NCBI RefSeq assembly: GCF_024502345.1
Contig: NZ_JALDNN010000001.1
Length of the DNA stretch: 64,000 bases
Origin: Escherichia coli
GTDB lineage: Bacteria; Pseudomonadota; Gammaproteobacteria; Enterobacterales; Enterobacteriaceae
Reading direction: 5' to 3' (one strand)
Positions within the stretch are counted from its first letter, which is position 1. Each line of letters opens with the position of its first letter. Shown here piece after piece: positions 58,755-61,700 of this stretch. A program made the position numbers.

Positions 58755-61700
58755 TGATTCAGGAGTGCGTTATGGACAGTCTCAATCTTAATAAACATAT
58801 TTCCGGCCAGTTCAACGCCGAACTGGAAAGTATCCGCACGCAGGTGATGACCATGGGCGGCATGGTGGAGCAGCAGCTTTCTGATGCAATCACCGCGATG
58901 CATAACCAGGACAGCGATCTGGCGAAGCGCGTCATCGAAGGCGACAAGAACGTCAACATGATGGAAGTGGCGATCGATGAAGCTTGCGTGCGCATTATCG
59001 CCAAACGTCAGCCGACGGCGAGCGACCTGCGTCTGGTTATGGTGATCAGTAAAACCATTGCCGAGCTGGAGCGTATTGGCGACGTGGCGGACAAAATCTG
59101 CCGTACTGCGCTGGAGAAATTCTCCCAGCAGCATCAGCCGTTGCTGGTAAGTCTGGAGTCGCTGGGCCGTCATACCATCCAGATGCTGCACGACGTGCTG
59201 GACGCGTTCGCGCGGATGGACATTGACGAAGCGGTACGTATTTATCGTGAAGATAAAAAAGTCGATCAGGAATACGAAGGTATTGTTCGTCAACTGATGA
59301 CCTACATGATGGAAGATTCGCGTACCATTCCGAGCGTACTTACTGCGCTGTTCTGCGCGCGTTCTATCGAACGTATTGGCGACCGCTGCCAGAATATTTG
59401 TGAGTTTATCTTCTACTACGTGAAGGGGCAGGATTTCCGTCACGTCGGTGGCGATGAGCTGGATAAACTGCTGGCGGGGAAAGATAGCGACAAATAATTC
59501 ACCAGACAAATCCCAATAACTTAATTATTGGGATTTGTTATATATAACTTTATAAATTCCTAAAATTACACAAAGTTAATAACTGCGAGCATGGTCATAT
59601 TTTTATCAATAGCGCGGTGATGCTGCCAACTTACTGATTTAGTGTATGATGGTGTTTTTGAGGTGCTCCAGTGGCTTCTGTTTCTATCAGCTGTCCCTCC
59701 TGTTCAGCTACTGACGGGGTGGTGCGTAACGGCAAAAGCACCGCCGGACATCAGCGCTATCTCTGCTCTCACTGCCGTAAAACATGGCAACTGCAGTTCA
59801 CTTACACCGCTTCTCAACCCGGTACGCACCAGAAAATCATTGATATGGCCATGAATGGCGTTGGATGCCGGGCAACCGCCCGCATTATGGGCGTTGGCCT
59901 CAACACGATTTTCCGCCATTTAAAAAACTCAGGCCGCAGTCGGTAACCTCGCGCATACAGCCGGGCAGTGACGTCATCGTCTGCGCGGAAATGGACGAAC
60001 AGTGGGGATACGTCGGGGCTAAATCGCGCCAGCGCTGGCTGTTTTACGCGTATGACAGGCTCCGGAAGACGGTTGTTGCGCACGTATTCGGTGAACGCAC
60101 TATGGCGACGCTGGGGCGTCTTATGAGCCTGCTGTCACCCTTTGACGTGGTGATATGGATGACGGATGGCTGGCCGCTGTATGAATCCCGCCTGAAGGGA
60201 AAGCTGCACGTAATCAGCAAGCGATATACGCAGCGAATTGAGCGGCATAACCTGAATCTGAGGCAGCACCTGGCACGGCTGGGACGGAAGTCGCTGTCGT
60301 TCTCAAAATCGGTGGAGCTGCATGACAAAGTCATCGGGCATTATCTGAACATAAAACACTATCAATAAGTTGGAGTCATTACCAGAGAAACAATGGAAGT
60401 ACCTGTATTATTACCAAAAGAACCAGCGGTTCTTTTGCGAAGAATATGTAGAGGACAAGAAACAGAACACCAATTAACGGTCCTAAAACCGCAAAATAAA
60501 GTCCGTGATGTATTACCCGACGTGAAACAGACATATCAAACTCCCTTTACTTACCTTTGAGCGCCAATTTAAGCGGGGTAAGTGAAGGGAGTGTGAAGAA
60601 CTATGCCGTAATATCCCAACCACGCGCTTTCCACAGTTCCGGTAACTGCGAAAGATGGGTAAAGGTGGTGACTTTCGGGTGAACGATCGGCTTATTGTGC
60701 GGGTCGGCGCAGAAGTAGAACACTTCCATACCTGCGTCGATACCAGATTGCGCACCGGCAACTGAGTCATCAACCAGAATGCAGTTTTCTACATTTACAT
60801 TCATCGCTTTTGCCGCATGGAACATTAACGCCGGGTCTGGCTTCCAGCGCTGAATATCGTAGCCGCTGAACAGTTTATCCGGGAAGTAGTGCAACATATT
60901 CAGCTTGCCCATAGAATGCTGCATTTTGTTATTTGGGCCGTTAGATACCACACACATTGGCGCAGTGATCGCTGACAGGAGCGCTCCAGCCCCTTCGATG
61001 GCTTCCAGTTCTGAATCGAACAGCCGAGCGACTTCTGCACGGTAAACGTGTTCAGCTTCTGTTTTCGCTAACGTAACACCATGTTCAAGGGAAACAATAT
61101 CGATAATTTCGTACAGTTTTACACCTTTGAAACGTTTGAATACCTCTTCAGGATCGAGCGTAATACCAAATTCCTGAAACATCGTTACATATGCGCGGGA
61201 GCAAATGACTTCACTGTCGACCAGCGTACCGTCGCAGTCGAAAAATACCGCTTCTATCCGGGACATGCCTTTCCTTTTTAATCAGTTTAACGTTTTCGTA
61301 GAGCCGATTTGCGCAACGCAATCGTTGCCGTATAAGTAAATCCAATAAAAAAGTCTCTCACAAACGCGCCTATTGTCGCATTTTGGTATACGATAGCGAC
61401 GGATTTTCCCTCCTTGTTCGGAAATAGATAATGAGTCATCAACATACCACCCAGACTTCTGGTCAGGGGATGCTGGAACGCGTTTTTAAACTGCGCGAAC
61501 ATGGTACTACGGCACGAACTGAAGTGATTGCCGGGTTCACCACCTTCCTGACGATGGTCTACATCGTATTTGTTAACCCACAAATTCTGGGCGTTGCTGG
61601 CATGGACACCAGTGCCGTCTTCGTAACAACCTGTCTGATTGCTGCTTTCGGTAGCATTATGATGGGATTGTTTGCAAACCTTCCGGTGGCGCTGGCTCCT

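Follow-up and report, generated by a model that had tools for sequence, protein, structure and literature searches.

IS1 without a target-site duplication marks a deletion from the bgl promoter into cbrB in an Escherichia coli chromosome

Introduction

The insertion sequence (IS) IS1 has long been established as a promoter of adjacent deletions, which Reif and Saedler reportedly described for the gal region in 1975, and the present study concerns a single IS1 copy that stands in place of the bgl operon and its neighbors between phoU and yieH in a 64,000-nucleotide stretch of an Escherichia coli chromosome (assembly GCF_024502345.1, contig NZ_JALDNN010000001.1), referred to here in its full length as the window. 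Natural bgl deletion alleles have been characterized by polymerase chain reaction (PCR), sequencing and Southern analysis, and IS insertions are frequent in the locus (Sankar et al., 2009; PMC2646131). Table S1 of that study (PLoS Genet) includes the allele delta(bglG-yieI)::IS1 in strain U4417, as well as delta(bglR-bglF)::IS1 (ECOR18), delta(bglt1-bglK)::IS1 (ECOR17), delta(bglB-bglH)::IS1 (ECOR9) and delta(bglI-yieH)::IS1 (E164) (PMC2646131). The classical insertions that activate the bgl operon fall in a zone from -70 to -150, upstream of the CRP site (PMC5493358). Regarding exact IS1 insertion coordinates, nothing usable was found in PMC8836124 or PMC11043490.

The deletion junction between phoU and yieH

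Comparison with E. coli K-12 MG1655 revealed that both flanks of the IS1 copy are collinear with K-12 and in the same orientation, while the intervening 9,084 bp are absent. The K-12 order is phoU, bglG, bglF, bglB, bglH, yieL, yieK, cbrC, cbrB, yieH; in the window phoU is followed by a 118-bp spacer, IS1, a cbrB stub and yieH, and then by adeP, yieF and yieE as in K-12. An earlier inspection of the window without database searches (the sequence-only reading) had proposed this order together with the 118-bp spacing, and both were borne out, the spacer occupying 59498-59615. The features of the junction, and a second IS1 copy that serves as its control, are as follows.

58772-59497, plus strand: phoU, intact, last gene of the pstSCAB-phoU operon (open reading frame, ORF; 98.5% collinear with K-12 phoU)
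59498-59615, plus strand: retained phoU-bglG spacer, 118 bp, with its end at bgl promoter position -37 (100% identical to K-12 as far as 3906735)
59505-59539, plus strand: perfect 15-bp hairpin directly 3' of phoU, retained (fold -18.7 kcal/mol, z = -6.0)
59616-60383, plus strand: complete IS1, 768 bp, left inverted repeat (IRL) to right inverted repeat (IRR) from left to right, without target-site duplication, the deletion junction
59671-59946, plus strand: insA of the junction IS1 (ORF), 91 amino acids, L81F relative to K-12 IS1A
59865-60368, plus strand: insB' frame of the junction IS1 (ORF), open
60379-60534, minus strand: truncated cbrB (yieI), of which the first 151 nt remain (50 codons and 1 nt), fused to the IS1 right end
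60601-61266, minus strand: yieH (6-phosphogluconate phosphatase), intact, first gene past the deletion (ORF and K-12 order)
52702-53469, plus strand: second IS1, internal control, 100% identical to the junction IS1, with a perfect 9-bp duplication AACAAGGTG

The element at the junction runs from GGTGATGCTGCC… to …GGAGTCATTACC at 60383 and has the attributes of the IS1 family, namely the length of 768 bp, inverted repeats, insA and insB' with the A6C motif, and identity to IS1A. Its terminal inverted repeats are imperfect (IRL and IRR agree at 23 of the first 35 positions), it is identical to K-12 IS1A at 761 of 768 positions (99.1%, 7 differences), and the A6C motif AAAAAAC of the -1 frameshift lies at 59922-59928; on these features the copy is apparently functional. 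The 9-mers beside it, CAATAGCGC on the left and AGAGAAACA on the right, match at only two of nine positions, and no target duplication of any length from 5 to 15 bp was found beside the element. The sequence-only reading had remarked on these non-matching flanks and on the matching ones of the other copy, and both remarks hold. Since that other copy is identical in sequence and carries the perfect AACAAGGTG duplication, it provides an internal positive control. The missing duplication argues against simple insertion but leaves the assignment to IS1 untouched.

Breakpoints and extent of the deletion

The left breakpoint lies within the bgl promoter. Four primers whose coordinates are given by Sankar et al. 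(2009, Table S4) agree in placing the bgl transcription start at K-12 3906698, and on this scale the last retained base is -37, between the CRP site and the -35 hexamer. The CRP site is retained at about 59581-59602 (core TGCGA-N6-TCATA, centered near -60), whereas the -35 hexamer TTGCTA, which would begin two bases further, the -10 hexamer and all downstream bgl DNA are gone. The junction reads …TCAATAGCGC/GGTGATGCTG…, and the 'filled' junction sequence is …CATTACC/CAATAGCGCATTGCT…. The G+C content of the retained spacer is 28-33%. The hairpin following phoU, whose stop codon is at 59495-59497, is a probable phoU terminator by its position and fold; it was visible on direct folding and was not flagged by a consensus terminator scan.

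The sequence-only reading had placed the left junction in a hotspot of bgl-activating insertions. The part of this claim that stands is that the junction lies in the bgl regulatory spacer and at a real IS1 hotspot (see below); its position at -37, outside the zone from -70 to -150, does not agree with an activating insertion. Activation of bgl was rejected as a reading, as the junction is downstream of the CRP site and bglG, bglF and bglB are deleted. Because it parts the promoter from its essential activator site, an IS1 at -37 would more probably inactivate the promoter than switch it on.

The right breakpoint lies within cbrB, with the junction sequence …GAGTCATTACC/AGAGAAACAATGG…. The right flank (60384-60534, minus strand) is identical at 151 of 151 positions to the start of the cbrB allele, 474 nt in length, that strains PO06101 and EA13 carry, and the product of the stub has 51 amino acids, comprising CbrB residues 1-50, identical to those of the 157-amino-acid CbrB of both strains, followed by a tryptophan and a stop codon contributed by the IS1 end. 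A precomputed match to the Pfam family PF26516 (CBRB) was present on this product, which agrees with the proposal that a minus-strand ORF of about 50 codons represents the N-terminus of cbrB. Full-length CbrB has 155-157 amino acids; with 50 of 157 residues left and residues 51-157 missing, the 51-amino-acid ORF is best read as a cbrB pseudogene fragment.

Alleles of cbrB differ by a 6-bp indel at window positions 60395-60404 (codons ~44-46), with several substitutions nearby, so that K-12 has 155 and the window-type allele 157 amino acids; relative to the window allele, K-12 carries a 6-bp deletion just within the retained stub. An ungapped right breakpoint at 3897656, corresponding to 9,078 missing bp, was discarded as wrong because this indel made the last 20 bp look mismatched. 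By gapped alignment with the 474-nt cbrB alleles the breakpoint falls after K-12 cbrB nt 145 (3897650/3897651), and the missing K-12 interval is 3897651-3906734, or 9,084 bp, in keeping with the 9-10 kb estimated at first sight. The size is stated on the K-12 reference only, because the 20-mer of the right junction was not found in strain ECCTRSRTH03.

Absent from the locus are the bgl core promoter, bglG, bglF, bglB, bglH, yieL, yieK, cbrC and codons 51-157 of cbrB, and a BLAST search with the missing K-12 segment against the whole window gave no match. None of the features named beforehand as grounds for doubt was found in the window, be it bgl or yieL-yieK-cbrC DNA elsewhere, matching repeats beside the IS1, or a stub unrelated to cbrB. 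The locus should be labeled delta(bgl promoter - cbrB')::IS1.

Recurrence of IS1 at -37/-36 of the bgl promoter

Junctions were surveyed in 5,426 complete RefSeq E. coli genomes, the closest of which is only 99.7% identical to the window over 24 kb. The -37/-36 site was struck by IS1 in at least six complete-genome lineages (L002, L008, L009, L010, L016 and L017), in both orientations and by different isoforms, and is a genuine nucleotide-precise IS1 micro-hotspot in natural isolates. Together with the window this gives seven lineages, the independence of which is certain only for some. The hits are listed with the orientation of IS1 relative to the window and the position of the junction.

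NCTC9040: same orientation, identical nucleotide; CAATAGCGC duplicated, bglG intact; IS1 99.2% identical to that of the window
ECCTRSRTH03: same orientation, identical nucleotide; CAATAGCGC duplicated, bglG intact; IS1 93.9% identical, clearly a different isoform
22AR0118 (L009): same orientation, identical left junction; right side rearranged
SCPM-O-B-7615: same orientation, 1 bp away; simple insertion
MNCRE44: opposite orientation, 1 bp away; AATAGAGCA duplicated, divergent bgl allele
Ec1120: opposite orientation, 1 bp away (-36); deletion into cbrC; two further genomes share the match, by match alone

NCTC9040 and ECCTRSRTH03 share the left junction and the orientation of the window, and their target CAATAGCGC is the left 9-mer of the window; they differ from it in having kept the second CAATAGCGC copy and the bgl genes, and in the IS1 isoforms. 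ECCTRSRTH03 has in addition a further IS1 in cbrB, in direct orientation and with a AAGAAACAG duplication, at a distance of 83 bp from the window's site, so that the whole bgl region lies between its two copies. In 22AR0118 tRNA-Arg and a fimZ fragment come after the -37 IS1 and precede another IS1 copy that abuts bglH; two IS1 copies thus enclose a foreign piece of chromosome within the bgl locus.

Recurrence of IS1 at cbrB nt 151

The right junction of the window was present in none of the 5,426 complete genomes in either IS1 orientation. With no genome closer than 99.7% either, the source strain lies outside that set; it probably belongs to a Shigella or IS1-rich E. coli lineage. The 51-amino-acid stub protein is, however, encoded on four draft contigs. 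Among these, GCA_050022275.1 (L004) is 100% identical to the window over 3.7 kb, its contig breaking inside IS1, and by this identity is assigned to the same lineage. Contigs from the runs ERR1623592 and SRR33792177 (Logan assemblies) have a very different yieH allele and are 1.5% apart from each other. In both, IS1 is joined to cbrB at precisely the nucleotide of the window junction, through its right end in one contig and its left end in the other. Nucleotide 151 of cbrB is thereby joined to an IS1 end in three genetic backgrounds and in both orientations (L004, L005 and L006, at contig ends). The junction in L005 must, to judge from the end involved, be independent of that in the window, because it is the left IS1 end that is joined at nt 151; that in L006 may be the same allele moved by recombination, which can be entertained because the 250 bp beside the junction are invariant in all strains. 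Its recurrence in three backgrounds, through either end of IS1, marks nt 151 as a preferred IS1 target, and with four further IS1 junctions within 90 bp of it in other genomes, IS1 targets are clustered in the 5' part of cbrB.

Regarding the DNA beyond the stub, two highly divergent alleles of yieH were observed, with a nucleotide difference of ~19% over ~750 bp (window positions 60634-61383 compared with L005, L006, L013 and L014), while the 250 bp beside cbrB are identical in all strains compared. Because the two alleles diverge next to an invariant segment, the border of the bgl island may coincide with an old boundary of recombination.

Should the precision at both sites be set by local DNA structure, such as the edge of the CRP-bent or H-NS-bridged promoter DNA, the loss of the bgl island through IS1 would be quasi-deterministic and would occur in parallel, and -37 would be an uncharacterized second IS1 hotspot, distinct from the activating zone, at which the promoter is uncoupled from CRP; this extension is offered tentatively, as an idea that could well be wrong.

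Other IS1-linked deletions of the bgl region

At least six other E. coli genomes have IS1-linked bgl deletions, with a single IS1 at the following breakpoints.

PO06101: -80 to cbrC
J3: -80 to cbrC, placed solely through its row of matches agreeing with that of PO06101
Z503: -91 to the 3' end of cbrB
TUM9812: bglG to cbrB nt ~64
19KM1863: bglH to cbrB nt ~67
Ec1120: -36 to cbrC, IS1 inverted

Like the window, these genomes have one intact IS1, no duplication and K-12-collinear flanks, and bglGFBH-yieL-yieK-cbrC are partly or wholly lost; unlike the window, their breakpoints, IS1 isoforms or orientation all differ from it, and none has its right junction. Since each differs in breakpoints, isoform or orientation, the deletions are counted as independent events.

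Route to the deletion

The sequence-only reading had suggested either an IS1-mediated adjacent deletion or recombination between two IS1 copies, and this remains the standard explanation, supported by the natural 'before' states in NCTC9040 and ECCTRSRTH03. An adjacent deletion, in which insertion of IS1 at bgl -37 would have been followed by intramolecular transposition into cbrB, is in our judgment a reasonable account, held with reserve. The ancestral lineage would have had a K-12-like bgl-yieL-yieK-cbrC-cbrB island between phoU and yieH. As relatives with the same insertion suggest, a simple IS1 insertion into the target CAATAGCGC at -45 to -37, in the orientation found in the window, may have come first; a transposase-driven intramolecular transposition of the replicative type, from the right end of IS1 into the AT-rich cbrB nt 143-151 (TGTTTCTCT), would then have ejected about 9.1 kb including the right-hand copy of the duplication, leaving one IS1 between unrelated 9-mers. 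The opposite direction, with the event anchored at cbrB and aimed at -37, would be equally possible because both sites are recurrent IS1 targets; the flanks of both junctions are AT-rich (28-40% GC).

Two separate IS1 insertions in the same orientation, at -37 and at cbrB nt 143-151, followed by RecA-dependent homologous recombination that removed 9.1 kb and one IS1, would yield the identical sequence, so that the window does not separate the two routes. ECCTRSRTH03 has precisely the architecture that such recombination would start from, with a -37 IS1 flanked by CAATAGCGC and a direct cbrB IS1 flanked by AAGAAACAG 83 bp from the site in the window; the junctions of IS1 with cbrB nt 151 in other backgrounds, once inverted, fit simple insertions there, and the two identical IS1 copies of the window show that perfect recombination substrates exist in this genome. 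Recombination between two copies is on this evidence a tenable, if somewhat doubtful, origin of the junction. It requires one event more than an adjacent deletion, no genome was found in which cbrB continues intact beyond an IS1 at nt 151, none of the 5,426 complete genomes has the right junction in either orientation, and the two-IS1 state was found in one complete genome (ECCTRSRTH03), while single-IS1 deletion alleles number at least six. A precedent comes from IS150: every IS-associated deletion lacking a duplication in the Lenski long-term lines went back to an insertion and a subsequent adjacent deletion (PMC11708052). An adjacent deletion is slightly favored over recombination because it needs one event fewer, because single-IS1 states and deletions are much commoner than two-IS1 states and because of this precedent. 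Weighing against it, besides the identity of the two products and the natural occurrence of the two-IS1 layout in ECCTRSRTH03, are the facts that the precedent documents IS150 and not IS1 (PMC11708052), that NCTC9040 and ECCTRSRTH03, in which the precursor state of a simple -37 insertion with its duplication exists, are not close relatives of the source strain, and that the intermediate state was found in no close relative, 99.7% identity over 24 kb being the most that any complete E. coli genome reached.

The collapse of two IS1 copies around an intact bgl region into one during assembly is conceivable for a multi-copy repeat such as IS1, and the contig of GCA_050022275.1, with its identical right flank, breaks inside IS1 and so leaves the two sides unlinked. 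Such an artefact is nevertheless very improbable, as the window spans 64 kb and two IS1 copies without a break, as finished or long-read assemblies typically do, several complete genomes carry comparable genuine deletions, and alleles of this kind have been documented by PCR, sequencing and Southern data (PMC2646131). Still less credit is given to a one-step event in which a copy of IS1 would have been captured at a double-strand break, or in the course of an unrelated deletion, without a staggered target cut. A capture of this type, proposed for some IS5 and IS481 events, also leaves an IS without duplication in the middle of a deletion (PMC11708052), but both junctions match to the nucleotide the sites of ordinary IS1 insertions with 9-bp duplications, and such a coincidence would be expected of targets chosen by transposase, not of random breaks.

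Other features of the window

The window is collinear with K-12, in reverse, from about 3,960,395 down to 3,894,040, and this collinearity is broken at three places: a 6.2-kb insert between glmS and pstS, an IS1 within that insert, and the phoU-yieH junction. The insert (48516-54719), which is not in K-12, is lpfA-D, the operon for lpf-O113 long polar fimbriae; 1,961 of the 5,426 complete genomes have it at the glmS-pstS site. The control IS1 is located in this operon, at the extreme 3' end of the usher gene lpfC (ORF 50172-52706, the stop codon of which now lies within IS1), and lpfD (53503-54576) begins just past it; IS1 was also seen in the lpf region of several other E. coli genomes. Further loci in the window are oriC (34380-34611), the ribosomal RNA operon rrnC (13751-18549) and ilvG (8152-9798), which is probably intact because it is 2 bases longer than the frameshifted pseudogene of K-12.

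Consequences of the deletion

The deletion left phoU with its hairpin and yieH untouched. The locus lacks the antiterminator BglG, the permease BglF, the phospho-beta-glucosidase BglB, the porin BglH, YieL, YieK and CbrC, the last by annotation a protein of colicin E2 tolerance, and only a third of CbrB is left. From this gene content the strain is predicted to be stably unable to use salicin or arbutin via bgl and would not revert by the usual activating mutations, a prediction that agrees with the phenotype class '0' of Sankar et al. (2009; PMC2646131). The finding is of use mainly for annotation, with the junction sequence as a possible lineage marker. Slightly wider interest attaches only to the fact that IS1 recurs, to the single nucleotide, at bgl -37 and at cbrB nt 151 in unrelated strains.

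Comparison with known systems

The adjacent deletions attributed to Reif and Saedler reportedly start exactly at one end of the retained IS1, end at a new target and leave no duplication, as is the case in the window; those were laboratory events followed in real time, while the window shows the end product only. The classical bglR::IS1 and bglR::IS5 insertions (Reynolds, 1981; Schnetz and Rak, 1992; Hall, 1998; via PMC5493358) are found in the same intergenic region, involve IS1 and share with the window the H-NS-bound, AT-rich DNA that acts as a magnet for IS elements. They lie at -70 to -150, upstream of the CRP site, with bglGFB intact, and activate the operon, whereas the window allele has its junction at -37, downstream of the CRP site, and destroys the operon by deletion.

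Among the natural alleles, that of U4417 resembles the window in that a single IS1 replaces the bgl-yieIJ block, comprising the same genes from the bglG side to yieI (= cbrB), but, going by the allele names, the window deletion differs in starting in the promoter at -37 and not inside bglG. The IS1 deletion strains of that collection were scored as lacking a functional bgl operon (PMC2646131). The window allele adds an independent case to a documented process, in which E. coli and Shigella-like lineages lose the H-NS-silenced bgl island to insertion sequences; loss through IS1, as in the window, is well documented, recurrent and already published.

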